DNA from: a virus
Direction: 5' to 3' (one strand)
Length of the DNA stretch: 19,994 nucleotides
Virus genome (UHGV): UHGV-0075856
A model generated the notes under the pieces. The model was given only the letters and a program-made list of their open reading frames with translations, ran no database searches and was not told the origin of the DNA. Within the stretch, counting starts at the first letter, position 1, and the number at the start of each line of letters is the position of its first letter. This document shows, in pieces, positions 8,857-19,994 of this stretch. Both the position numbers and the translations under genes were made by a program.

Positions 8857-9930
8857 ATGAATGACGTTACAGTTGTTACATCGGTTACTTACCCATCACC
8901 CGAGTCGTTGGCTCTGGTGGCTGATGTGCAATACCACGAACCATATCTGTCAGCCGCTCTAAACCGAAAATTCAGGGGAATTGTTGACCCGGGATTTTAT
9001 GCTGGTTTCTTGCCTAAGCCTGGCGGTGGGATGAACCTGTTAATCACCTCAGTGGATGGAGATAAAACCGCTGGCGCGGCGTCAGTGGATATTGGTGAAT
9101 TCTACCAGGTAACTATTCAGCATCGTAAGGATATCTCTCTTGCACTTAACGCAGGCAAGAAATATGCAATTGTGCTGAAGGGAAGATACCTTCTTGGAGA
9201 AGATACCTATCAGGTGAATACCGCGTCACATATTCATGCAGCTGAATTTGTTGCCAGAACCTATACCGATTCATATCAGTTAGGTGATGGGGAACTGCTG
9301 GTTTGTACGGTGAATATCCCTGCTGGCGTATCTACCATTACTCAAGAGATGATTGATACATCCGAGCGTATCAACCGCACGATCGGCATTGATATTTCAG
9401 ACTCTGTAACCAGTACCAGAAGTGATGTTGCTGCGAGTTCGCTGGCAGTTAAAAAAGCCTACGATCTGGCGAAAAGCAAGTATACGGCGCAGGATGCAAG
9501 CACAACGCAAAAGGGATTAGTTCAGCTCAGTAGTGCCACTAACAGCACGTCTGAAGTGCTGGCCGCCACACCGAAAGCTGTCAAGGCTGCATATGATTTG
9601 GCTAACGGGAAGTATACAGCCCAGGATGCAACCACGGCTCAAAAAGGGATAGTCCAACTCAGCAGTGCTACCAATAGCACGTCCGAAGTGCTGGCCGCCA
9701 CACCGAAAGCTGTCAAGGCTGCATATGATTTGGCTAATGGAAAGCAAGCGGCAGACGCTACGCTCACTGCTCTAGCGGCACTAGCTACAGCAGCAGATAA
9801 ACTCCCTTATTTCACAGGTGTTGATCGTGCCGCGTTAACTGCATTGACAAGTGTTGGACGCGCCATTCTTGGTAAGACCAGTATTCAGAGCGTTCTTGAT
9901 TACCTTCCATTTCTGCTAAAGCACCCATGA
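8857..9930 (+). CDS. Tail fibre, constant N-terminal/shaft part (Sc); in this orientation it ends prematurely 8 codons after the inversion crossover (…SVLDY-LPFLLKHP*) and lacks a receptor-binding domain
   Basis: ATG at 8857 with AGGA RBS (the track ORF from 8770 overlaps the upstream gene). Contains 2.3 copies of a 44-aa phage fibre repeat (…QKG-VQLSSATNSTSEVLAATPKAVKAAYDLA…). The sequence after 9904 is the antisense of an invertase gene and hits a stop at 9928-9930. Confidence 0.8.
   Translation: MNDVTVVTSVTYPSPESLALVADVQYHEPYLSAALNRKFRGIVDPGFYAGFLPKPGGGMNLLITSVDGDKTAGAASVDIGEFYQVTIQHRKDISLALNAGKKYAIVLKGRYLLGEDTYQVNTASHIHAAEFVARTYTDSYQLGDGELLVCTVNIPAGVSTITQEMIDTSERINRTIGIDISDSVTSTRSDVAASSLAVKKAYDLAKSKYTAQDASTTQKGLVQLSSATNSTSEVLAATPKAVKAAYDLANGKYTAQDATTAQKGIVQLSSATNSTSEVLAATPKAVKAAYDLANGKQAADATLTALAALATAADKLPYFTGVDRAALTALTSVGRAILGKTSIQSVLDYLPFLLKHP
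9449..9745 (+). repeat. Tandem direct repeat, 132-bp unit x about 2.3, near-identical at nucleotide level, encoding the 44-aa fibre-shaft repeat
   Basis: Read directly: units begin at about 9449, 9581 and 9713; GAAGTGCTGGCCGCCACACCGAAAGCTGTCAAGGCTGCATATGATTTGGCTAA recurs at 9553 and 9685. Confidence 0.85.
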
Positions 9931-10249
9931 CATGAAAAAAGAAACGCCCCATGGGTGTTGATGTGTCAATACTGTCTGTCAGACTACGGAAATTAACACC
10001 TTTTTCCCGCAACTCCTCTATAAGCGTGATAAGGTGTTTCATACTTCTGCCAAGCCTATCCAGCTTCCAGACAACCAGCGTATCTCCTTCTGATAACGTT
10101 CTGAGCAGCTTTTTCAAGCCTGGTCTGGCTGACTTTGTTCCGCTTATTTTATCTTCAAAAATCAGTTCACATCCTGCGCAGTTCAGTGCATTTCTTTGTA
10201 AATCTGTGTTTTGGTCATTTGTTGACACACGAATGTAGCCAATTTGCAT
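9812..10249 (-). CDS. Serine DNA invertase (Hin/Gin/Pin family), N-terminal catalytic fragment only; invertase-homologous codons span 10249 down to 9905, then the frame runs into antisense fibre sequence to a stop at 9812
   Basis: Translation MQIGYIRVSTNDQNTDLQRNAL…GDTLVVWKLDRLGRSMKHL…SLTDSIDTSTPMGRFFFHVMGALAEME is the conserved invertase catalytic domain (active-site Ser in YIRVSTNDQ) and then becomes unrelated (GNQERSEYWS…). ATG at 10247-10249 with AAGAGG RBS; the track's TTG at 10258 is 3 codons upstream. HTH domain is absent here. Confidence 0.85.
   Translation of the reverse strand: MQIGYIRVSTNDQNTDLQRNALNCAGCELIFEDKISGTKSARPGLKKLLRTLSEGDTLVVWKLDRLGRSMKHLITLIEELREKGVNFRSLTDSIDTSTPMGRFFFHVMGALAEMEGNQERSEYWSYQEWRVQHLSMQLTRHDQHL
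9893..9918. other. Hybrid serine-invertase crossover site: hix/gix-like left half-site TTCTTGATTACC, central TT (9905-9906), right half CCATTTCTGCTA derived from inside the invertase ORF
   Basis: Left half matches 10/12 to the hixL half-site TTCTTGAAAACC as I recall it. Right half does not match the consensus and is the reverse complement of invertase codons about 114-118. The central dinucleotide coincides with the point where both gene fusions become in-frame. Confidence 0.6.
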
Positions 10250-10302
10250 GAAAAACAACCTCTTTGTTTAGTTAAAAATACATCGTTGGTATAGGTAGGG
10301 AT

Positions 10303-10330
10303 TAAGACTAAAACGTTGGTTTGGGGGAAG
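10303..10330. other. Invertase crossover site at the start of the Sv cassette (AAGACTAAAACG-TT-GGTTTGGGGGAA), adjacent to the invertase promoter region
   Basis: Half-sites resemble hix/gix (…AAAAC-N2-GGTTT…). Right half is identical to the fibre half of the reconstructed Sc junction site. Lies about 60 bp upstream of the invertase start on the opposite strand. Confidence 0.55.
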
Positions 10331-10530
10331 GCTCTGCACTGCCTGTTGGTGTGCCCGTTCCGTGGCCCTTAGAAACACCACCAACGGGCTGGCTAAAATG
10401 CAATGGTGCAGCATTTTCTTCTGAAATGTATCCCAAACTGGCAAAGGCCTACCCCACCAATAAATTACCGGATTTACGCGGTGAGTTTATCCGTGGTTGG
10501 GATGATGGGCGAGGTGTGGATGCGGGAAGG
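10316..10530 (+). repeat. Left inverted repeat of the invertible fibre cassette (conserved 5' part of Sv), about 200 bp, about 90% identical to the inverted copy at 11685-11898
   Basis: Direct comparison: ACGTTGGTTTGGGGGAAGGCTCTGCACTGCCTGTTGGTGTGCCCGTTCCGTGGCC here versus the reverse complement of 11843-11898 (CACGTTGGTTTGGGGGAAGGCTCAGCATTGCCTGTTGGCGTACCTGTTCCGTGGCC). Encoded peptides are near-identical for about 62 aa. Confidence 0.85.
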
Positions 10531-10779
10531 GTCATCTTAAGCATACAGGGGTGGTTAACAGGAAGTCATTATCATAATATTCGGTCATGGGACGCGTGGG
10601 ATAACACGGTATTGGTGCCAAATGACAGAGGGGGGGATAGTCTGTTGTCGACAGATAACGCCGTCCGGCAAGGAGCGATTAATGGTAAATTTACCAGTCA
10701 ATACAGAACGGAGTTATCTGGGGGGAATGAAACCCGCCCACGTAACATTGCCTTCAATTATATTGTGAGAGCAGCATAA
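10321..10779 (+). CDS. Tail-fibre variable C-terminal cassette Sv (receptor-binding part); not fused to Sc in this orientation (in-frame TAA two codons upstream), so the TTG 'start' in the ORF track is an artefact
   Basis: Peptide GEGSALPVGVPVPWP…GWLKCNGAAF…ETRPRNIAFNYIVRAA is paralogous to the - strand cassette. The frame opens exactly at the crossover site and is immediately followed by a fibre-assembly gene. Confidence 0.7.
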   Translation: MGEGSALPVGVPVPWPLETPPTGWLKCNGAAFSSEMYPKLAKAYPTNKLPDLRGEFIRGWDDGRGVDAGRVILSIQGWLTGSHYHNIRSWDAWDNTVLVPNDRGGDSLLSTDNAVRQGAINGKFTSQYRTELSGGNETRPRNIAFNYIVRAA

Positions 10780-11390
10780 TGGATAATGCGATATTAAATA
10801 GCGAACTTATAGCCATACAGGCAGGAAACATTATCGTTTATAACTATGATGGTGGTAATCGGGAATATATTTCTGCATCAACTGAATATCTTGCTGTTGG
10901 CGTTGGTATTCCGGCAAATTCTTGTTTGGATGCTCCAGGCTCACATAAAGCAGGTTATGCGATTCTCCGTTCAGAGGATTTAAGTTCATGGGAGTATGTG
11001 CCAGATCATCGTGGCGAAACTGTCTATAGCATTGACACTGGGAATCCCGAAGAAATCACGGTGTTGGGTGACTATCCGGAAAATACAACCACTATCGCCC
11101 CGCTAACACCATACGACAAATGGGATGGAGAGAAATGGGTGGTTGATACTGAGGCTCAACATAGTGCAGCTGTAGAGGCAGCAGAAACAAAACGTCAGTC
11201 ATTGATTGATACTGCGATGGATTCCATTAGTCTGATTCAGTTGAAATTACGGGCTGGACGGAAGTTGACGCAGGCAGAAACCACGCAGCTTAACTCCGTG
11301 CTAGATTATATAGACGAGCTGAACGCGATGGATTTAACCACGGCACCAGATCTCAACTGGCCTGAAAAACAACTTTCTACAGCCAGTTGA
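10779..11390 (+). CDS. Tail-fibre assembly chaperone (U/Tfa-like, 203 aa)
   Basis: ATG overlaps the Sv stop (TAATG). Sits directly downstream of a fibre C-terminal cassette inside the invertible segment, as in Mu/P1/e14 Tfa arrangements. Assignment by position and size. Confidence 0.6.
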   Translation: MDNAILNSELIAIQAGNIIVYNYDGGNREYISASTEYLAVGVGIPANSCLDAPGSHKAGYAILRSEDLSSWEYVPDHRGETVYSIDTGNPEEITVLGDYPENTTTIAPLTPYDKWDGEKWVVDTEAQHSAAVEAAETKRQSLIDTAMDSISLIQLKLRAGRKLTQAETTQLNSVLDYIDELNAMDLTTAPDLNWPEKQLSTAS

Positions 11391-11395
11391 TATAA

Positions 11396-11898
11396 TTAAT
11401 CCGCCCTCACAATATAATTAAATGCAATATTACGAGGGCGGGTTTCTAAGCCAGCAGTACCTAAATTAGCTACGGACTGTTTATATGTTTTAAAAGTTCC
11501 ATAATTAGGGGCTGGCAATCCTGCATCGCTTGTGTTCCCCCATCTGATAACTCCCGTATTACCACTAGTAGCCCATGCCTCGTCAAAGTAGAAATTAATT
11601 GAGCGGTCAGTTGCTACGGTTGATTTTGACGGTAATCCGTGAGCATGATCCTCCGTTGCATATCCTTGCTCGCTTAAAATAGAGCGACCAGAGTCAATCC
11701 CTCGCCCATCATCCCAGCCACGGATAAACTCACCGCGTAAATCAGGTAATTTTAACGTTGGGTAAACCTTTGCCAGATTTGGGTACTTTTCAGAAGAAAA
11801 TGCTGCTCCGTTACATTTCAGCCACCCCGTTGGCGGAGTGGCTGAGGGCCACGGAACAGGTACGCCAACAGGCAATGCTGAGCCTTCCCCCAAACCAA
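11396..11898 (-). CDS. Alternative tail-fibre variable C-terminal cassette Sv'; would be fused in frame to Sc after inversion
   Basis: Peptide (from the crossover) GLGEGSALPVGVPVPWPSATPPTGWLKCNGAAFSSEKYPNLAKVYPT…ETRPRNIAFNYIVRAD: same conserved ends as Sv with a divergent central region. The ORF-track N-terminal extension (12049-11899) is antisense of the invertase C-terminus and not part of the fibre. Confidence 0.75.
11402..11441. other. Inverted repeat CCGCCCTC…GAGGGCGG (8-bp stem, 24-nt AT-rich loop) between the convergent chaperone and Sv' 3' ends; possible bidirectional terminator
   Basis: Read directly; lies within the last codons of Sv' on the - strand and 12 nt after the chaperone stop; followed by GTTTCT on +. 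Confidence 0.3.
11685..11898 (-). repeat. Right inverted repeat of the invertible fibre cassette (conserved 5' part of Sv')
   Basis: Reverse complement matches 10316-10530 as described for the left repeat. Confidence 0.85.
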
Positions 11899-11910
11899 CG
11901 TGAATTAATT
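11873..11910. other. Second hybrid crossover site: fibre half-site TTCCCCCAAACC, central AA (11897-11898), then CGTGAATTAATT which is invertase codons 119-122 (R-E-L-I)
   Basis: The fibre inverted repeat ends exactly at the codon where invertase homology resumes. The central AA is the complement of the TT at 9905-9906. Confidence 0.6.
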
Positions 11911-12126
11911 GTTGAGAGAACACTGGCCGGACTGGCAGCTGCACGCGAACAGGGACGCATTGGCGGACGTCGCCCGAAGTTGACAAAAGAACAACATGAG
12001 CAAATAGCGAGGTTGATCGAAAATGGCTACAGCAGGAAACAGTTGGCAATTATTTACGATATCGGTGTATCGACGATTTATCGTTATCATCCTGTAGAGA
12101 AGCGCCAAACTCAATCTGAGCTGTAA
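11899..12126 (+). CDS. Serine DNA invertase C-terminal fragment (end of E-helix plus HTH DNA-binding domain, 75 codons); no native start codon in this arrangement
   Basis: Peptide RELIVERTLAGLAAAREQGRIGGRRPKLTKEQHEQIARLIENGYSRKQLAIIYDIGVSTIYRYHP matches the Hin/Gin C-terminus and continues precisely from …GALAEME at the end of the - strand fragment. Upstream in-frame residues (MGKPLPDLG…LPPNQ) are antisense of Sv'. Confidence 0.85.
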   Translation, partial: RELIVERTLAGLAAAREQGRIGGRRPKLTKEQHEQIARLIENGYSRKQLAIIYDIGVSTIYRYHPVEKRQTQSEL

Positions 12127-12435
12127 TTCTAATGCCGCGTCGGTGTAATTTATCTTGATAGAATAGGTACATTTATCGCGCGGCACATCAATTCGATGTA
12201 TCTAGCGCCTGCTGACCGCTAATGAAAACTGTTCTCGAAATGTTGTCCCTAGTCCGAGACTAGGGTATCACCTCTGGAAAGCATACGCAGAACCTTTTTT
12301 AACCCAGGGTGCCCAGCTTTTTTGCTGCTCGCCTTATTCGCAAAAATTAGCTCACATCCTGCGCTTTCAAGTGCTTTTCACTGCATAGCTGTGTTTTGTT
12401 CATTTGTCTATATGCGTACATAGCCTATTAGCATA
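12127..12435 (-). pseudogene. Decayed Cin-like serine invertase remnant (N-terminal about 100 codons, several in-frame stops and frameshifts), convergent with the invertase C-terminal fragment
   Basis: Reverse-strand translation from 12435: MLIGYVR-I*-TNEQNTAMQ*-KALESAGCELIFANKASSKKAGHPGLKKVLRMLSRGDTLV… then frameshifted (…ALDTS…). About 75% nucleotide identity to the 5' end of the invertase at 10121-10250. Recognisable homology fades near 12190; the 3' boundary is uncertain. Confidence 0.7.
12247..12265. other. Perfect palindrome CCCTAGTC-CGA-GACTAGGG inside the invertase pseudogene, at the point where its reading frame collapses
   Basis: Read directly; sits where the pseudogene stops tracking …GDTLVVWKLDRLGRS… in the intact paralogue. 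Confidence 0.5.
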
Positions 12436-12561
12436 TTTTCTGCCCACTATCGTTATTTATTGCAAGCTACAGGTTTTAATTAACAAAACCAGTGTGTGTG
12501 GAAATCACAAAGTGCATACCGTTCTCAAATGTTGTTCAACTTACTGTTGTATAGGTAAAAA

Positions 12562-12825
12562 ATGACATTTTATGTACATATCGTGATGTTATCCCTTCTT
12601 GGTGGGGTGTATTCGTATTTGAGTGGGCTATGTGAAAACCGTTACGAGTCTTCATGCAAGAAATTGCTGGCCGAATGTATTTCCGCCGTACTTGCTGGCT
12701 TTATTGGCATGTATCTCGCGGAATATAAGGACATGAATGAAAGCCTTCAGAGCTGCATGGTTCTTATTTTCAGCGCCAATAGCAGGCTTATTATTGAAGG
12801 TTCCAAAAGTCGGTTGAATAGGTAA
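12562..12825 (+). CDS. Small hydrophobic ORF (87 aa, two predicted membrane segments), unassigned; may be non-coding
   Basis: Open frame with ATG, but only a weak RBS (TAGGTAAAAA). Two hydrophobic stretches (IVMLSLLGGVYSYLSGL; ISAVLAGFIGMYLA). Sits in a 0.77-kb gap between the invertase remnants and the holin gene. Confidence 0.3.
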   Translation: MTFYVHIVMLSLLGGVYSYLSGLCENRYESSCKKLLAECISAVLAGFIGMYLAEYKDMNESLQSCMVLIFSANSRLIIEGSKSRLNR

Positions 12826-12899
12826 GTCTCTTATGCAACATAACCGGTTGAGAAGTTACTTTGCATACCATTACCTCCTGACAACGTAGGAGGGAACTT

Positions 12900-13229
12900 G
12901 TGCTTGACACACAGGAATTAGCTCCAGTTGCTATTGCGCTCCTGCTTTCAGTAATTGGTGGGATAGGCACGTTCCTGATGGATGTCCGAGACGGTCGCCA
13001 GTCTGGCAATTTGTTGGGATTGGTTACGGAGATCTTTGTTGCAGTGACAGCTGGCGCGGTGGCGTACCTATTGGGGCAACACGAGGGCTGGGAGTTATCA
13101 ATTACGTACTTAATGGTAACGATAGCCAGCAATAACGGTCATGAGGTGATTTCAGGGATGAAACGAGTGAATATCGATAGCATTCTGAATGTTCTTACAA
13201 GTTTGGTGAAAAAGGGAGGCGGGAAATGA
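12900..13229 (+). CDS. lydA: Holin (P1 LydA-like, 109 aa)
   Basis: GTG start 5 nt after a strong AGGAGGGAA RBS. 109 aa with hydrophobic membrane segments and a charged C-terminus (…VKKGGGK). Size, position ahead of a 147-aa partner and a dar operon match P1 lydA as I recall it. Confidence 0.6.
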   Translation: MLDTQELAPVAIALLLSVIGGIGTFLMDVRDGRQSGNLLGLVTEIFVAVTAGAVAYLLGQHEGWELSITYLMVTIASNNGHEVISGMKRVNIDSILNVLTSLVKKGGGK

Positions 13230-13669
13230 TTGGCTGGGGTGTATGCGTTCTTGCGTTAGCCTTAGCCGATCGCTATTTGCTAAAACGCAAGGACATCACG
13301 CATTTAGAACTTGGTGATGTGGAAATTAAACCGGGTTTCATCCGGGTGCCGTTCAAATACCGGTCTAAATTCCCGTTTTTGCGCGGCGCAACGGTCAGAT
13401 ATTGGATCCGCGATGTTCAGAAGCCGACGACAGTGATTGAAGGCGAACAACGTTGTTTGACGTCGGCTGAACAGGGCGAAAACAGTGAATGGTTGTACAT
13501 ACCCACTGAATATATGGGTAAAGGAGAGCGACTGTGGCATTTCAACGTCATGGTTACGCATGGCGACTCGTTCATTAACCCGTTGTATCGGATTTTCCCT
13601 GTTACTCAGCAAATCCGCAGAAGTTACGTAATAAATCTCGCACAGGATGTGTCAGATGACGAAAAATAA
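13226..13669 (+). CDS. lydB: Antiholin / holin-associated protein (P1 LydB-like, 147 aa)
   Basis: ATGA overlap with the holin stop (translational coupling). N-terminal hydrophobic segment (GWGVCVLALALA). Size and synteny match P1 lydB as recalled; no catalytic motif seen. Confidence 0.5.
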   Translation: MIGWGVCVLALALADRYLLKRKDITHLELGDVEIKPGFIRVPFKYRSKFPFLRGATVRYWIRDVQKPTTVIEGEQRCLTSAEQGENSEWLYIPTEYMGKGERLWHFNVMVTHGDSFINPLYRIFPVTQQIRRSYVINLAQDVSDDEK

Positions 13670-14258
13670 GTATGCAACGGTCGATTTTGACCAGGTTAAT
13701 GAAAAGGGGCTGAAATCCCTTATCGCGGCGATCAATAAAACCGGTGTTACGGTAATTGAGGTTGACTCCAGCAACCGCGCAACAACGAAAGATGGCGTTA
13801 AAGTTAAAACCGCAAAGCTGGTTCTTAACGACGGACAAATTCTTGCCATACAGGTAAACGATACTGGCGATATATCGTCTGTGAGGCTGAATGGAAAAGC
13901 TATTCCTAACGCTCAGTCGCCGGATATCAAGACGCTTGGTACCGTCATGGGGCAAGCGGCCCGCAAAAACTCCGCAAAATTCCAGAAATCACTGATCGCC
14001 AAAGCGAAACGTGTTGCCAATCCGGTAGACAAGAAACCGGCAGTAAAATCCAACTTTCAGCGCCTGCAAGAGGCAAAACAGCGGAATGCTCAGGTGGTTG
14101 CCGCTTATAAATCAGCGCAGAACTCGGTGTCTTTCAATCAACAGCAGATCACTGATTTGCGGGCGAAGCTGGATAAGGAGACAGGCCGACTCAATAACGA
14201 AAAGGCCCGAAATGGCGAACTCAAACGCCGTCTTAAGCAACTGAAAGCAGGAAATTAA
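13656..14258 (+). CDS. hdf: Hdf-like protein (DarA-homologous fragment; head-associated antirestriction/morphogenesis component), about 200 aa
   Basis: ATG at 13656 with AGGA RBS (track ORF starts at 13647). Shares a segment with the next ORF (…ARKNSAKFQKSLIAKAK… versus …AEKNSAKFQRAQKKKK…, and AAAAACTC[C/G]GCAAAATTCCAG at the nucleotide level). Both have a coiled-coil-like stretch. Confidence 0.55.
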   Translation: MTKNKYATVDFDQVNEKGLKSLIAAINKTGVTVIEVDSSNRATTKDGVKVKTAKLVLNDGQILAIQVNDTGDISSVRLNGKAIPNAQSPDIKTLGTVMGQAARKNSAKFQKSLIAKAKRVANPVDKKPAVKSNFQRLQEAKQRNAQVVAAYKSAQNSVSFNQQQITDLRAKLDKETGRLNNEKARNGELKRRLKQLKAGN

Positions 14259-14259
14259 C

Positions 14260-16179
14260 ATGGAACAGTTCAATATCAATAAAGGGGTGACGATCAAGCC
14301 TGGGCTTGACGTGCTTCCCCCGCCAGTGACTGATGATGAATATCGCGCATTAATGGCCGGTGAGGACCGCTATCTGATGACGGAATCCAACACCCTGGAG
14401 GAAATCGAGGCTACGTTCTTCTATGACACGCCGATCCACTGGTGTGCTACGGATTTACTGGAGGCGATTAGTTCTACTCGTTTGCAGTTACACCGGACCA
14501 TGCAGGCATTTGTCCGGGCATTAAACCAGAAGCTGAATGGTACCGGAATCTCTGCGGGGAGTGATAAAACGGGGGATGTGGCCCAGAACGGTGCACGCGC
14601 GATCGGCGGGGCTGAAATTGGCCGGGCACGTAACGTTAACGGGCTGCCGGTCCTGCCAGCCATTATTCCGCTCAGTGATGGTCAGACTATCAGCATTCTG
14701 TTTCATAGCCCGACAGCGGAAAACCGGATCACCAATAGCGATACGCTGATTGCTTTCCAGTTCTTACTGAATAAAAAAGACGTTACTCATACCGTTGCTC
14801 CGATGAGTGGACGTGATATGACGCTGGCGCAGGTCACCATGAAACTTGCCAACCTTGCAGAGAAAAACTCGGCAAAATTCCAGCGTGCGCAGAAGAAGAA
14901 AAAAGCCCTGGTTGATGAAATAACCCAACTACAGGCTGACAGTGACCAGAAAGAGGATGCCATGAGCGACCTCGCGGATCAGGTGGCAGCGGTAGAAGGG
15001 CAGAAGGTAGATCTGGAGCAGAAAATTAACGCTGTTGCATCGGAAGCGGATTCTCTTTATGAAGAGAATGAGCGTTTGCAGACGGAGATTGATCAGCTCA
15101 ATCGAACTGGTGGGCGCGAAACCATTGCTCCTGCGGGGATGACTGGTGGACACTCTCGCGCGATGACGGATCGCCTTGCAAGTATCAAAAATCGTATGCA
15201 TATGAACGGGGAAGTGACGCTCAGTAATGGTGCATCAATGAAGCAATTCATTGAGGACGGTGAAGGGTATATCCAGTTAACCGATTCGGATGGCAGCGTG
15301 TACATGATCAAGGCTAAATCCATACAGGGTGTGGACATGGCAGATGCGATCGGCAAGCTGTTTAAAGCCTATAAAGCGGGTAATGTATCGGAATACCTGG
15401 TCCAACCAGAAGAACATAAACCGGAAAACGTCGAACCTGAACCAGCGGAGGATACCGGTAGCTCTTCGCCTGAACCAGAAGTCTCTGTAGGTGCATATCG
15501 ATATGCCCTGCAAATGCGTCCGGCGGCCCCTGGCGCAATACCTGAAGGTAACAAAGCAATTCTGCCGCGCCCTGATGAAGGTGACCCGTATTATGAATAT
15601 GCACGCTACGGCATTGCTACTTACGATACCCCGCTTTCTGATCAGCAAATGAGTGAGTACGACCTGAAGTTATTGCCTCGCGAGGATTCTTTCGACTTCT
15701 TGGCGAAGACACTTACTAATGGTCCGTTTGGCAAATATGCACAAAAAGCTCTGGAGCTGGCCACCAGCTCACCAGACGAGTTCCGCGTAATGCTGAAAAC
15801 TCAGTTTCAAAAAACTTTCCCCAATATTGCGTATCCGGGGGGCGCTGGCACCGAAAAAATGGTGCAGAGCATGATCAATGCATTGCAGGCCGAAGTCGGT
15901 GAGATTACTCAGCCAGAACCTGCCCCGGCACAGCCTGATGAAACGGTTAGCGAAGCAGATGCAGAGGCTAATAAAGCCATTGAATATCTCAATAACGTGA
16001 TGGATATGCAAAGCACTGACATGGCGGAGATCCGTAACGCCCGGGGCAATGTCCGGGAAGCGATTGCAGCCCTTCAGGCTGCCGGGCGTTTTGAGGAAAA
16101 CGAAGAGCTGGTTAATGGCGCTGCTCGCCACCTGGCTGATCTGCTGGTAGCAATCCAGAAAGCGGGGGTAGCGGCATGA
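14260..16179 (+). CDS. darA: DarA-like antirestriction/capsid-internal protein (639 aa)
   Basis: 639-aa ORF starting 2 nt after the previous stop. Internal homology to the preceding Hdf-like ORF, a heptad-rich coiled coil (…DEITQLQADSDQKEDAMSDLADQVAAVEGQKVDLEQKINAV…) and an acidic Pro/Glu-rich linker. Size and order (holin, antiholin, hdf, darA, ddrA, ddrB) match the P1 darA operon as I recall it. Confidence 0.6.
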   Translation: MEQFNINKGVTIKPGLDVLPPPVTDDEYRALMAGEDRYLMTESNTLEEIEATFFYDTPIHWCATDLLEAISSTRLQLHRTMQAFVRALNQKLNGTGISAGSDKTGDVAQNGARAIGGAEIGRARNVNGLPVLPAIIPLSDGQTISILFHSPTAENRITNSDTLIAFQFLLNKKDVTHTVAPMSGRDMTLAQVTMKLANLAEKNSAKFQRAQKKKKALVDEITQLQADSDQKEDAMSDLADQVAAVEGQKVDLEQKINAVASEADSLYEENERLQTEIDQLNRTGGRETIAPAGMTGGHSRAMTDRLASIKNRMHMNGEVTLSNGASMKQFIEDGEGYIQLTDSDGSVYMIKAKSIQGVDMADAIGKLFKAYKAGNVSEYLVQPEEHKPENVEPEPAEDTGSSSPEPEVSVGAYRYALQMRPAAPGAIPEGNKAILPRPDEGDPYYEYARYGIATYDTPLSDQQMSEYDLKLLPREDSFDFLAKTLTNGPFGKYAQKALELATSSPDEFRVMLKTQFQKTFPNIAYPGGAGTEKMVQSMINALQAEVGEITQPEPAPAQPDETVSEADAEANKAIEYLNNVMDMQSTDMAEIRNARGNVREAIAALQAAGRFEENEELVNGAARHLADLLVAIQKAGVAA

Positions 16180-16541
16180 CACTATCAGCTATTGAGTTAA
16201 TGGATCTCAGCGATAAGTTGGATGCTCTGATGTCCAAAGCGGCTACCGCGAGTGGCATGGAGTTGCTGGATATCAGCGATGAAATCGACCAGATCATGCA
16301 ACAGATGGGGTACGGCGCGTCCGGAGGTGGTAGTGGCGAGGAAAAACAACCTTCGGAACATGATGGTGTGCCAAAACTGGTTGCTGATTTCCTGGCTGAT
16401 AAATTCGTCGATCAGAGCACCGATGCATTTATCGGTACCTTGCAGGATTTGAGTCAATATGTTGGCACATACATCGACCTGGACCAGGTTAAACAGCACA
16501 CGGCGGCATGGATAGCCGCCAACATTAAAGAGGCAGCATAA
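16176..16541 (+). CDS. ddrA: DdrA-like small acidic protein of the Dar operon (121 aa)
   Basis: ATGA overlap with the darA-like stop; acidic; assignment by synteny and size. Confidence 0.5.
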   Translation: MTLSAIELMDLSDKLDALMSKAATASGMELLDISDEIDQIMQQMGYGASGGGSGEEKQPSEHDGVPKLVADFLADKFVDQSTDAFIGTLQDLSQYVGTYIDLDQVKQHTAAWIAANIKEAA

Positions 16542-16553
16542 GGCGTAACAGGG

Positions 16554-19541
16554 ATGAGCTTAAGCGATCAGGTGGTAATGGCCACCAGCATAGAAACGCT
16601 GATCGAGCTGCTAAAGAACTTGCCCGATTATGGGCGGGTTTCGTATGTGGTGACAGCGAAGGGAGACGAGGTAAAAACAGCGTTTGATATCGTCGATGCC
16701 TCAGCTCTTTTGGTATCCAATACTCTGGATGGGAAAATTAATCCTGACTATCCCCAGGAACTTCAACCGCGCGACCGGACCCGCGCATCCAGCCTTCTTC
16801 AGGTTAACCAGATATCCAAGGATTTGCGGCCTGCTCAGCTTACCGATTCCGGTCTATCCAGCCATGGCGCGCCGATAATTGGTGAGGACAATGCCGTTGA
16901 GTCAGGTAATGGACGGACCATGGGGATCATTAAAGCCTATCAGGACGGCAATGCGGATCGGTATCGTGAGTACCTGATTGATCATGCGACCGAATTCGGC
17001 ATACGACCTGAAAAGGTTGAATCAATGACGGCTCCGGTACTGGTGCGCCGCCGGTTAACTAAGGTTGACCGCGTTCAGTTTGCCAAGGACTCAAATATTT
17101 CTGATCTTCAGGAAATGGCAGCCAGTGAAAAGGCTTTTGTTGATGCCGACAGCATAACACCGGCGATGATGGCGCTTTTTAACCCGTCAGAAAGCGGAGA
17201 TCTGCTTAGCCGCAGTAATGACACGTTTATTCGCGGATTTATGACGCAAGTTGGTGCCACACAGGCGGCTGGCCTTGTAACTGAAGATGGGCGACCAACA
17301 CGGCAACTTGTAGACCGTATACAAAACGCGATCTTTGCCAAGGCATATAAGGATGCGCGCCTGGTAAGGATGGTTGCAGAAGAACCTGATCCGGATATGC
17401 GTAATGTTCTGACGGCGCTTAATGCGGCAGCCAATGATTTTGTCCAGATGCAGGCTTTGTCAGGAGAAGCGCACAAGCAGGCTGTGACAACTATTGTTGA
17501 TGGCATTGAGACAGCGGATAGCCTCGATAAAAAGGCGCTGGCGGCATTGAAAGATGCGGTAGACCTGGTAAGGCAATCGAAGGAGTCAGGCCAGCATATT
17601 ACCGATGTTATTGCTCAGGGGGATATGTTCAGCGAAACGGCCCCGGAAGTGAAAGCACTCGCGTTGTTCATCGTCGCGAATAACCGTAGCGCGAAGCGTA
17701 TGGCCACCGCCTTTAAGTTGATGGCGCAACGTATCAATGATGAGTTACAGCACCAGGGCCAGGCGCTCGGGGATATGTTTGGCGGCGGCGATGTGTCGTT
17801 ACAGGATATCCTTCGCCAGGTGTCTCAGGAACTGGAAAACGAAGGCATGCAAGGGATATCCGGCGGTCTTTTCGAGTCCGTTTCCGGCGGTAGTTACAAC
17901 GGTGTTGCTCCATATACCAGCTTGCTATTACATCGGGCATCCGGCATCAAAGACATTATTCATCTGATCAGGCTGCTATCCCGCACCGATCCCCAGGATG
18001 AGCAGCTTGTACAAGTGCTTGCGCATTTTGTCCGAATGCCTGTTGCCGACGTAAAAAAATGGTGCCGATTATTCGGTATCAGCAATTCGTTACTTCGCGG
18101 ATTGTTAAATCACGCATCCTCCCTTGGGCGCGACGGCTTTGATGAGATAGCGCAGGCGATAAAAAACGGAGATATGCCACCAGCTATTGACTGGTTTTCC
18201 ATTCGCCCAACCAGGGTGAAAGCATTCCTTAGCGCGGCGCATTCGGCATCACCATTGGCAGAAATGGTTCAGAGGTTGTCGCTCATATTCACAGACCATA
18301 CCGCGTTGGGTGATCTGACTCTGGACGAGATGAAAGAAGCCTCCATTCAGTGGGCCGATCAACAAAATGAGGTTAACTCTGACTTCTTGCCAGCATTCAG
18401 GAAGGCCGTTAGTAAAGTGGATGATGCCCGTGGAATTCTGAAGGCATTTAAGGCATTGCAAAGTCGGGTTAATAAACATGTCGGTGATATCGATGGGGTA
18501 ACGGCGGAAGGCAGGGATATCCTTAAAGAGCACGGCATAACGCCAGAGTTTATTGATGAGATCAGGACGGATATGCAGCGTGAGGTCGTATCGTCCCTGC
18601 AAATCGTAGCCAGAGCGTTGGCGGATGCTAATCCGAAGAGTGCGGCCATTGTTAACCGGGTTATTGGTGATATTGAAGCATCGGAGGGCATGGGGGCGCT
18701 GAAACTCTTCCTTTCGCGAGCGTTTAATCCTAACGGCAATATTCTCCCCGGCATTATTTGTGAGGCTAAAAAGTATGTCAGCGAAGAAGAACTTGAGCAT
18801 CTTGACCAACTACTTAAGCGATTCTCATATAACCCGCAGACACGCTGGCAAATGAATCAGCGAAGTATGGGTTCGGTCCACGAGAAAGTGTTATCTGCCA
18901 TGAACAGTGCGATCGCCAACTCATCCGTATCTGAAGAAAAAGCTCTTGAGTGGGCCGACTCTTTTATCACGGAAGAAGTGGAAGAAGCCCGCGCTGGACA
19001 GAATGGTGGGATAGACCTGCGCAAGGAACTTGCTGATATTTATCGCCTGACCGGCGGTAAAATTTCGACCTTATCAAAGGTGGTTCACCACCAGGGAAGG
19101 GCATATGCAAATCTAAATGGTGTTGTTGCTGTCAATTTGAACGATGAAAATGCAAGTGCACTGTGGCACGAGCTGGGTCATCATCTTGAGTACAGTAACC
19201 CTGGTTTGTTAGAGAAAGCCCGGTCATTCCTGAAGGCCAATGTTGAAGGGGATAAGCCATCTTTCGTTAATATCGGTGGGCGTGGCAAGCCTGAATGGTG
19301 CTTCAGATCTCGATTGAGTAATATTTATATGGCGAAGGTATACCCGCCAGCCTCAGTAAGTAACACCGGGAAAATTCGGCAGAAATCACCGACTATTTCC
19401 AAAACGTCAGCAACGGAAGTATTCTCTATGGCTCTTCAGTTGTATCATGACAAAGAGGCCGCTGCCGCATCACTGATGAATGGTGACGGATTGCTGGAAC
19501 TGTTATTAGGTGTGGCAAAGGAGCTAAATAATGCAGATTAA
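16554..19541 (+). CDS. ddrB: DdrB-like large Dar-operon protein (995 aa) with an HExxH zinc-metallopeptidase-like motif (WHELGHHLEY at about 19163-19192)
   Basis: 995-aa ORF; motif read directly; assignment by synteny and size. Confidence 0.5.
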   Translation: MSLSDQVVMATSIETLIELLKNLPDYGRVSYVVTAKGDEVKTAFDIVDASALLVSNTLDGKINPDYPQELQPRDRTRASSLLQVNQISKDLRPAQLTDSGLSSHGAPIIGEDNAVESGNGRTMGIIKAYQDGNADRYREYLIDHATEFGIRPEKVESMTAPVLVRRRLTKVDRVQFAKDSNISDLQEMAASEKAFVDADSITPAMMALFNPSESGDLLSRSNDTFIRGFMTQVGATQAAGLVTEDGRPTRQLVDRIQNAIFAKAYKDARLVRMVAEEPDPDMRNVLTALNAAANDFVQMQALSGEAHKQAVTTIVDGIETADSLDKKALAALKDAVDLVRQSKESGQHITDVIAQGDMFSETAPEVKALALFIVANNRSAKRMATAFKLMAQRINDELQHQGQALGDMFGGGDVSLQDILRQVSQELENEGMQGISGGLFESVSGGSYNGVAPYTSLLLHRASGIKDIIHLIRLLSRTDPQDEQLVQVLAHFVRMPVADVKKWCRLFGISNSLLRGLLNHASSLGRDGFDEIAQAIKNGDMPPAIDWFSIRPTRVKAFLSAAHSASPLAEMVQRLSLIFTDHTALGDLTLDEMKEASIQWADQQNEVNSDFLPAFRKAVSKVDDARGILKAFKALQSRVNKHVGDIDGVTAEGRDILKEHGITPEFIDEIRTDMQREVVSSLQIVARALADANPKSAAIVNRVIGDIEASEGMGALKLFLSRAFNPNGNILPGIICEAKKYVSEEELEHLDQLLKRFSYNPQTRWQMNQRSMGSVHEKVLSAMNSAIANSSVSEEKALEWADSFITEEVEEARAGQNGGIDLRKELADIYRLTGGKISTLSKVVHHQGRAYANLNGVVAVNLNDENASALWHELGHHLEYSNPGLLEKARSFLKANVEGDKPSFVNIGGRGKPEWCFRSRLSNIYMAKVYPPASVSNTGKIRQKSPTISKTSATEVFSMALQLYHDKEAAAASLMNGDGLLELLLGVAKELNNAD

Positions 19542-19839
19542 AATCGCAGCGCCATTAGGCGGAGATGCCATTATCGAATTTGATGATAATGAAGAAGTTT
19601 CCGGGCGTTTAAGCATTATCTCCGGTGACATTACCGAGGACATGATCACTGAAGCCATAGCTGGGGCAAATCCCAATAGCTATATGGGATTCGTTAACAC
19701 CCTTGATGCTCCCGTAAGTGATGTTCTCCGAACGCTGCATCTTTACGCTGGCTGGTTTGTTGATTGGCCATCTGTAGATGGTGGCGATGAGGACGACGAC
19801 GATGATTTTGGTAATCATGTAGACCAGATCGTATATTAA
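19531..19839 (+). CDS. Small acidic protein (102 aa) with poly-Asp/Glu C-terminal tail
   Basis: ATG overlaps the end of the ddrB-like gene; C-terminus …VDGGDEDDDDDFGNHVDQIVY. Confidence 0.45.
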   Translation: MQIKIAAPLGGDAIIEFDDNEEVSGRLSIISGDITEDMITEAIAGANPNSYMGFVNTLDAPVSDVLRTLHLYAGWFVDWPSVDGGDEDDDDDFGNHVDQIVY

Positions 19840-19904
19840 CTCCCTGATAGTGTTAAAATAACCTGTTCTGGTATGTTAATTGTGTACTTAAGGTAAATGT
19901 GTTG

Positions 19905-19939
19905 TGGCTTGCTTTAGACTATGGAAGCAAGCCATTTCT
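19905..19939 (+). terminator. Intrinsic terminator candidate: 10-bp stem (TGGCTTGCTT / AAGCAAGCCA), 10-nt loop, followed by TTTCT
   Basis: Inverted repeat read directly, 66 nt after the stop of the acidic ORF; likely the end of the dar operon transcript. Confidence 0.5.
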
Positions 19940-19953
19940 GGTGATGCCTCTAA

Positions 19954-19975
19954 TTAGTTGAATCTGATGTATAAT
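19954..19975 (+). promoter_or_regulatory. Possible extended -10 promoter (TG-n-TATAAT at 19968-19975) reading rightward out of the window
   Basis: TGTATAAT read directly; no well-spaced -35. Weak evidence. Confidence 0.25.
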
Positions 19976-19994
19976 ACGGGCTTTTGAGGTTATC

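Follow-up and report, generated by a model that had tools for sequence, protein, structure and literature searches.

The late dar operon of bacteriophage P1, carried intact in a P1-like phage-plasmid genome

The dar operon of bacteriophage P1 has been under study since the 1980s, and two genes located outside this operon in P1, darB and ulx, are required for protection against EcoB and EcoK; both are also outside the 20-kb window analyzed here, i.e., the whole 19,994-nucleotide stretch of virus genome UHGV-0075856. In P1, LydA has been described as a holin and LydB as its antiholin, within the late dar operon (PMC9025707). Moreover, Hdf, DarA, DdrA, and DdrB are reported, with their roles, in the P1 virion proteome, where LydA and LydB are never mentioned (PMC9024508), and the protection that Dar proteins confer against type I restriction-modification acts in cis (PMC12707154). 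A 2026 paper resolved DarA and Hdf in situ, within the P1 head. On the inner side of the P1 capsid, 55 DarA-Hdf pairs contact the DNA and are ejected with it; these pairs occupy every penton-hexon junction, and the capsid ruptures in their absence, while DarA loses its residues 1-69 and the helical domain of Hdf comprises residues 135-203 (PMC12810830).

A second group of related systems is that of the polyvalent, injected antirestriction proteins, for which DarA-N, DdrB-ParB, and MPTase domains were defined, the Hdf-DarA homology was named and published, and a C-terminal metallopeptidase was proposed in DdrB (Iyer et al., 2017; PMC5512222). The same domains were found in the window, with DarA_N in both Hdf and DarA, and DdrB-ParB together with an HExxH motif in DdrB. 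However, whereas polyvalent proteins join their domains in one giant polypeptide, in the window these are distributed across separate small cistrons.

In the window, positions 12900-19839 were colinear with positions 24244-31183 of phage P1 (AF234172), with 98.0% nucleotide identity, 100% coverage and not a single indel over 6940 nt in each sequence. The seven genes, all on the plus strand (lydA, lydB, hdf, darA, ddrA, ddrB, and hxr), share lengths and start codons with those of P1, in whose annotation they and the late promoter LPdar stand at the corresponding positions; gene order, overlaps, and late promoter are likewise the same as in the P1 operon (AF234172/NC_005856). Accordingly, the original prediction of a P1-type darA operon (lydA, lydB, hdf, darA, ddrA, ddrB) is borne out, as are the lengths given for its seven open reading frames (109, 147, about 200, 639, 121, 995, and 102 amino acids; the third, Hdf, has 203 residues, or 200 from the ATG at 13656), the last of which had been left unnamed and corresponds to hxr. 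Across the operon, 137 nucleotide substitutions relative to P1 resulted in 41 amino acid changes (16 in DarA and 13 in DdrB), so that each protein differs from its P1 counterpart by 0 to 16 residues, and the dN/dS values of the six genes that differ (0.04-0.54) denote purifying selection. Furthermore, Pfam, PHROG, and NCBIfam gave concordant family assignments for LydA, LydB, Hdf, DarA, DdrA, and DdrB. What the analysis shows directly is which genes these are, that they are intact, which domains they encode, what the promoter sequence is, and that selection on the genes is purifying; the region is almost certainly the late dar operon, in working order, of a P1-like phage-plasmid of the genus Punavirus.

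Such operons are common. Nineteen phage records matched the region at 95-99% identity. A further 757 plasmid records matched it, and in 430 of these the match extended over 80% or more of the query. P7, RCS47, SJ46, JL22, phi456, and IncY plasmids of Escherichia coli, such as pLAO54 (NZ_OP242276), presented 98.2-99.0% identity over the whole region, and pLAO54 was 100% identical to the window between positions 11897 and 14400. RCS47, SJ46, and vB_EcoM-813R1 carry an IS200/IS605 insertion within the operon, whereas the copy in the window has none. Both the P1 dar operon and the Hdf-DarA homology are already known, and the present copy is an ordinary, intact one in a common P1-like phage-plasmid. 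Its practical value is in annotation: the window can be assigned with confidence to a P1-like phage-plasmid (Punavirus, IncY-type) whose dar operon is complete. For questions about how Dar proteins block type I enzymes, or about the roles of DdrA, Hxr, and the ParB and putative peptidase domains of DdrB, P1 itself serves equally well.

Upstream of lydA, the sequence of an Lpa-dependent late promoter, LPdar (positions 12853-12871, plus strand), is present, as read from its -22 element (AAGTTACTT, 12853-12861) and its -10 element (TACCAT, 12866-12871); LPdar is annotated in P1 AF234172, and from position 12843 to the start of lydA the window is identical to P1. The holin gene lydA (12900-13229; 109 amino acids) begins with GTG behind a GGAGGG Shine-Dalgarno sequence, and is 100% identical to its P1 counterpart at both amino acid and nucleotide levels; its product matched Pfam PF16083 (E=5e-7; 30.1 bits against a cut-off of 28.4) and the holin PHROG 1527 (E=4e-49). 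This gene of the LydA-type holin family is followed by an overlapping gene of the LydB family, lydB (13226-13669; 147 amino acids), encoding the LydA antagonist (antiholin) with two amino acid differences from P1 LydB and a full-length match to PF16084 (E=8e-104; 344 bits against a cut-off of 28). The ATGA start/stop overlaps proposed to couple translation at 13226 (lydA/lydB) and 16176 (darA/ddrA) are both present, read directly from the sequence; moreover, the start of hdf overlaps the end of lydB, hdf and darA are 1 nt apart, and the last 11 nt of ddrB are shared with hxr. The lysis genes had been predicted to be fused to the Dar operon, and they do belong to one late operon in P1 (PMC9025707), but as separate cistrons, with no gene fusion. 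By analogy with published work on P1, from which expression, packaging, lysis timing, and antirestriction are inferred, LPdar would drive one tightly packed message in the late phase of lytic growth, LydA would open holes in the membrane that give an endolysin encoded elsewhere access to the wall, and LydB would delay LydA, preventing premature lysis.

The hdf gene, as annotated in P1, spans positions 13647-14258 (203 amino acids; three differences from P1 Hdf), while a 200-residue form starting at the ATG at 13656 has a better-placed AGGA and is the one annotated by PGAP in pLAO54. Its product, about 200 residues long, has a single DarA_N domain homologous to that of DarA (PF18788 at residues 13-109; E=1.5e-21; 76.9 bits), followed by a helical tail, and it matched the Hdf-like antirestriction PHROG 1620 (E=4e-80) and, over residues 1-203, PDB chain 9ukm_H, "Hdf" (E=1e-121), a chain that is also present in 9vz0. 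The following gene, darA (14260-16179), encodes 639 amino acids arranged as an N-terminal propeptide of about 69 residues, DarA_N, a helical region, and DarA_C, with 16 differences from P1 DarA, nine of which fall between residues 250 and 343. DarA matched the NCBIfam equivalog NF052326, "antirestriction phage head protein DarA," with 1089.5 bits against a cut-off of 350, and both Pfam domains above their cut-offs (DarA_N, PF18788, at 66-204, E=3e-42; DarA_C, PF18789, at 411-472); furthermore, it was matched over residues 1-639 by PDB chain 9ukm_I, "Defense against restriction protein A," also found in 9vz0. Similarity to Dar proteins and the placement of the 639-residue protein in the DarA family, on which the original prediction depended, were thus both found (NF052326 and 9ukm_I).

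The segment said to be shared by the two proteins is indeed there, with the heptapeptide KNSAKFQ at residue 107 of Hdf and residue 202 of DarA, and BLASTP aligned Hdf 44-115 with DarA 122-210 (31% identity over 90 amino acids; E=7e-4), two regions that lie in DarA_N. It is to this homology that hdf (homologue of DarA fragment) owes its name. As for the anticipated coiled-coil stretches, coiled-coil character at about residues 190-290 of DarA is backed by weak matches to coiled-coil families. Hdf and DarA are paralogues that have in common DarA_N and the helical segment after it. As in P1, the prohead protease would remove about 69 N-terminal residues of DarA, and parallel helices would pair Hdf with DarA on the inner capsid at penton-hexon junctions, touching the packaged DNA; normal head size and the loading of DdrA, DdrB, DarB, and Ulx would need this pair. 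Once ejected with the DNA, the Dar proteins would act in cis, shielding that DNA alone from type I restriction enzymes.

In this context, Hdf and DarA could primarily be a device for capsid assembly and stabilization, acting on head size, penton-hexon cementing, and neutralization of DNA charge, with antirestriction as a secondary outcome of the loading of DarB, DdrA, and DdrB. Their position at each penton-hexon junction and the rupture of capsids lacking them (PMC12810830) speak for such a role, and an EcoSal review points out that interdependence complicates the interpretation of dar phenotypes; however, in a CRISPRi knock-down darA and hdf were non-essential for plating, and therefore they are not core structural genes. 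We consider this primary role possible, if rather unlikely, and it does not conflict with the reading of the region as a functional dar operon, whose proteins, according to P1 experiments (PMC9024508, PMC12810830, PMC12707154), enter the head during packaging, leave it together with the DNA, and protect that DNA in cis from type I restriction-modification, properties that the present copy would share by analogy.

The operon had also been placed directly downstream of the host-range switch, which is roughly correct, but a lydC-like holin gene (12562-12825) and fragments of an invertase gene lie between them, and the adjoining switch is rearranged and broken, unlike that of P1. The lydC allele diverges from that of P1 (87 versus 93 amino acids, with 55 identical alignment positions). 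As a separate observation, an aberrant inversion at a quasi-site within the invertase gene, with its junctions at 9906 and 11899, has split this gene in two and truncated the tail-fibre gene S, which ends eight codons past the aberrant junction. Cin-type invertases reportedly use quasi-sites with the same central dinucleotide, as Iida and Hiestand-Nauer are said to have found in the 1980s; our literature search on quasi-cix sites gave nothing relevant. The inversion in this copy may have been a self-inactivating one, with the tail-fibre invertase cutting a quasi-site in its own gene.

If the disruption of S and of the invertase gene is real, the element may make no infectious particles, in which case the antirestriction role of the operon would not be exercised. 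On a rival reading, the P1-like plasmid prophage is defective and its dar operon is a relic in decay, with genes that are still readable and no longer used because no infectious particles can be made. The early stop in S, the two-part invertase gene, and the end of an IS1-family element abutting the hairpin after hxr are in line with such decay. On the other hand, the seven open reading frames are intact, with neither indels over 6940 nt nor dN/dS values against P1 above 0.54, LPdar is unchanged, the identity with pLAO54 between 11897 and 14400 is complete, and the inversion could have occurred recently, could be undone in trans, or could be a minority state that the assembly picked up. Decay of the operon is, on this evidence, improbable.

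Within the intact operon, ddrA (16176-16541) encodes 121 amino acids (pI 4.07; two differences from P1 DdrA) that matched the DdrA-like anti-restriction PHROG 1855 (E=1e-57), and no relatives outside this PHROG were found in Pfam, NCBIfam, or PDB. The next gene, ddrB (16554-19541), encodes 995 amino acids with 13 differences from P1 DdrB, a DdrB-type ParB domain at residues 36-167 (PF18763, the DdrB-specific ParB family; E=2e-39), and a zincin-like HELGH motif at residue 872, located by pattern search. Neither residues 701-995 nor the whole protein gave a profile or PDB match to a peptidase, and the putative peptidase assignment rests on the earlier proposal (PMC5512222). Antisense within ddrB, an open reading frame of 132 amino acids (17108-17506, minus strand) is present at the position of P1 iddB. 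That the 639- and 995-residue proteins belong to other families (SMC-like coiled-coil and partition ParB) and resemble Dar proteins superficially can safely be dismissed, since the coiled-coil models, SMC-like ones among them, that DarA 154-290 weakly matches have cut-offs far above the scores obtained (e.g., 22 bits versus 567), DarA reaches 1089 bits against 350 for its equivalog and matches 9ukm_I end to end, and the ParB-superfamily domain of DdrB is the DdrB-specific one. With respect to the predicted packaging of the operon products in the capsid, this agrees with the P1 virion proteome for Hdf, DarA, DdrA, and DdrB, but not for LydA and LydB, which are lysis proteins absent from that account (PMC9024508).

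The last gene, hxr (19531-19839), encodes 102 amino acids with a pI of 4.05 and a poly-Asp tail, and would be co-transcribed with the rest of the dar operon. Its product is 95% identical to P1 Hxr (five amino acid differences), belongs to PHROG 2292 (unknown function), and is known from P1-like elements only, its 14 homologue clusters being all close relatives. An HTH/Xre-type domain had no match in Pfam or PDB at E<=10, nor in NCBIfam, and the P1 annotation of Hxr as an Xre homologue is therefore unsupported by these three sources. An AF2 model built from an eight-sequence alignment was of low confidence (pLDDT 59.3), with three strands at the start. Speculatively, and with little expectation that it will hold, Hxr might be not an Xre-like repressor but a small acidic anti-defence or Dar-loading factor, resembling DdrA in size and charge, in which case its label in the P1 annotation would be wrong.

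Downstream of hxr, a terminator candidate had been placed at 19905-19939. A 12-bp hairpin does occupy positions 19904-19935, is stable (dG -18.2 kcal/mol; z=-3.6; none of 200 shuffles as stable), and is conserved in P1, where it separates hxr from isaB, which runs towards it; however, the T-tract after it (ATTTCT) is weak, and a consensus terminator scan returned nothing at 19905-19939 and no overall excess (10 sites versus 7.3 expected). On the basis of folding and conservation in P1, the hairpin is a possible terminator. In P1, isaB and then IS1 follow downstream, whereas in the window the end of an IS1-family element begins about 5 nt past the hairpin. The P1 IS1 itself was considered for this end and rejected, as the last 55 nt of the window match the IS1 inverted repeat in part and belong to a divergent IS1-family element.

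The stretch at 12900-19839, which the original prediction had identified as the darA operon of phage P1, is a textbook case, carried by a very common element, and is already known. Among 50,697 phage records searched by megablast, it matched 19 at 95-99% identity, including P7, RCS47, SJ46, JL22, phi456, and P1 itself (AF234172 / NC_005856, 24244-31183; 98.0% identity, 100% coverage), and this colinear P1 match, together with the family tests, supports the proposed identity. In P1 the corresponding region carries, behind the late promoter LPdar, annotations for lydA, lydB, hdf, darA, ddrA, ddrB (with an internal antisense ORF, iddB), and hxr; the 102-aa ORF that the prediction had left unnamed is hxr. 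Gene by gene, protein lengths and start codons are the same as in P1, with no amino acid differences in LydA, two each in LydB and DdrA, three in Hdf, five in Hxr, 13 in DdrB, and 16 in DarA. Since both operons measure 6940 nt, with no indels and dN/dS values of 0.04-0.54, the genes are intact and under purifying selection. Moreover, the LPdar -22 element AAGTTACTT (12853-12861), the -10 element TACCAT (12866-12871), and all sequence through to the lydA GTG start are the same as in P1. The same DNA is found in 757 plasmid records, mostly non-mobilisable Escherichia coli plasmids, the closest being IncY phage-plasmids such as pLAO54 (NZ_OP242276), to which the window is 100% identical at 11897-14400. 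Indeed, the window is P1-like throughout (sit, bplA, gene 16, R, S, tail-fibre switch, and dar).

When the ORFs were compared with the P1 Dar proteins, similarity was found throughout. LydA and the upstream LydC-like protein (E=1e-9) both match the LydA holin family (Pfam PF16083), and LydB matches PF16084 across its full length (E=8e-104). Pfam further identified DarA_N in Hdf, DarA_N and DarA_C in DarA, and a DdrB-type ParB domain in DdrB, while the PHROGs families matched were Hdf-like and DdrA-like antirestriction. The 639-aa protein is DarA, scoring 1089.5 bits (cut-off 350) against the NCBIfam equivalog "antirestriction phage head protein DarA"; both DarA and Hdf match their P1 counterparts in PDB end to end (9ukm, 9vz0). 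Iyer et al. (PMC5512222) proposed a metallopeptidase at the DdrB C-terminus, which an HELGH motif at residue 872 fits; no profile or PDB match supported a peptidase fold in DdrB.

The seven same-strand ORFs (109, 147, 203, 639, 121, 995, and 102 aa) are tightly packed, with the sizes read from the sequence agreeing exactly with the ORF table. The ATGA start/stop overlaps proposed as translational coupling are present at the lydA/lydB (13226) and darA/ddrA (16176) junctions; in addition, the end of lydB contains the hdf start, hdf and darA are separated by 1 nt, and the last 11 nt of ddrB are shared with hxr. The lysis and Dar genes, described originally as fused, are better called co-transcribed, being separate cistrons. 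The hdf start is ambiguous (13647-13658): the P1-annotated ATG at 13647 lacks a Shine-Dalgarno sequence, and the ATG at 13656, which is PGAP's choice in pLAO54, has AGGA 10 nt upstream and gives 200 aa. The PHROG match to Hdf starts at residue 4.

Internal homology between Hdf and DarA, also predicted, is real and already published. Hdf 44-115 aligns with DarA 122-210 (31% identity, E=7e-4), sharing KNSAKFQ (Hdf 107, DarA 202), and both stretches fall inside DarA_N; moreover, DarA 166-287 matches the Hdf PHROG (E=8e-4), so that the similarity continues into the helical segment. By cryo-EM, DarA and Hdf pair via parallel helices (PMC12810830). Relative to P1, DarA has nine of its 16 substitutions between residues 250 and 343 (window 15007-15288), an apparent cluster located in the modelled part of the protein (residues 70-382) and including the penton-contact loop 342-346 (PMC12810830).

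The lysis, packaging, and antirestriction roles that the operon would play here are taken from P1, in which LydA acts as the principal holin and is antagonised by LydB, both being expressed under a late promoter of the dar operon and unlinked to the endolysin gene (PMC9025707). The claim that these proteins are packaged in the capsid holds for Hdf, DarA, DdrA, and DdrB, which are P1 virion head proteins, but not for LydA and LydB, which are lysis proteins and are not mentioned in the published virion proteome paper (PMC9024508). On the inner capsid surface, 55 DarA-Hdf pairs touch the DNA at penton-hexon junctions, and are gone from particles after DNA ejection; DarA lacks residues 1-69, in line with prohead protease cleavage, and loss of DarA or Hdf leaves all other Dar proteins missing from the particle (PMC12810830). 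Protection against type I systems acts only in cis, on packaged DNA (PMC12707154), and hdf, darA, ddrA, ddrB, and hxr are all dispensable for plating when the host does not restrict (PMC10695390).

The operon lies only loosely "directly downstream" of the host-range switch, which is rearranged and differs from that of P1. Comparison with pLAO54 revealed that, within 8857-12126, the invertase gene is split in two, with codons 1-115 on the minus strand (10249 to 9905), codons 116-190 on the plus strand (11897-12126), and the Sv-U-Sv' segment (10313-11901) between the halves. Both junctions (9902-9906 and 11897-11901) are reciprocal with a TT/AA core: recombination has taken place between the Sc crossover site (..GATTACC TT GGTTTGGGGG..) and a quasi-site in the invertase gene (..TTCACG TT CCATTTCTGC..). 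The tail-fibre gene S stops at 9930, eight codons beyond the junction, without a receptor-binding tip. A single inversion, starting from a normal two-Sv switch in its alternative orientation, accounts for the whole arrangement, truncated S and disrupted invertase alike; the switch appears to be locked, and the fibre truncated. The junction 100-mer was not found in 5,426 complete E. coli genomes or 72,556 plasmids; the aberrant inversion could be fixed, or it could be a rare molecule caught by assembly. The constant part of S (9457-9744) contains 300-nt tandem units corresponding to Phage_fiber_2 repeats, two fewer than in pLAO54 (600 nt, in frame), and this short form also occurs in NZ_CP035313 (99.9% identity).

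A remnant 5' fragment of another, divergent cin-like invertase gene (12434 to 12258, minus strand) is found between the 3' end of the first invertase gene and the lydC-like gene, covering aa 1-59 with 63% identity to the pLAO54 recombinase; it occupies the position of cin in P1, and pLAO54 has the same remnant. The lydC-like holin gene (12562-12825) is a divergent allele compared with P1, coding for 87 aa rather than 93, with 55 aligned positions identical; the copy in pLAO54 matches it at 100% identity.

At the operon end, Hxr (19531-19839), which is annotated in P1 as "possible repressor; homolog of Xre", had no HTH family match at E<=10 in Pfam, and none in NCBIfam or PDB. It is acidic (pI 4.05) with a poly-Asp tail, is confined to P1-like elements, and its dN/dS (0.54) exceeds that of every other gene in the operon. 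The terminator candidate placed at 19905-19939 corresponds to a genuine hairpin (19904-19935; -18.2 kcal/mol, z=-3.6) conserved in P1, where hxr and isaB converge on it from either side, but its T-tract is weak and it was not among the calls of a consensus terminator scan. P1 homology ends at 19938, and the window stops 55 nt (19940-19994) into the inverted repeat (GGTGATGC...) that bounds a divergent element of the IS1 family; the insertion lies some 5 nt past the hairpin, where P1 has isaB. This junction is common to six plasmid records, in one of which (NZ_CP034659) the next 0.8 kb contains broken ORFs resembling InsA and InsB.
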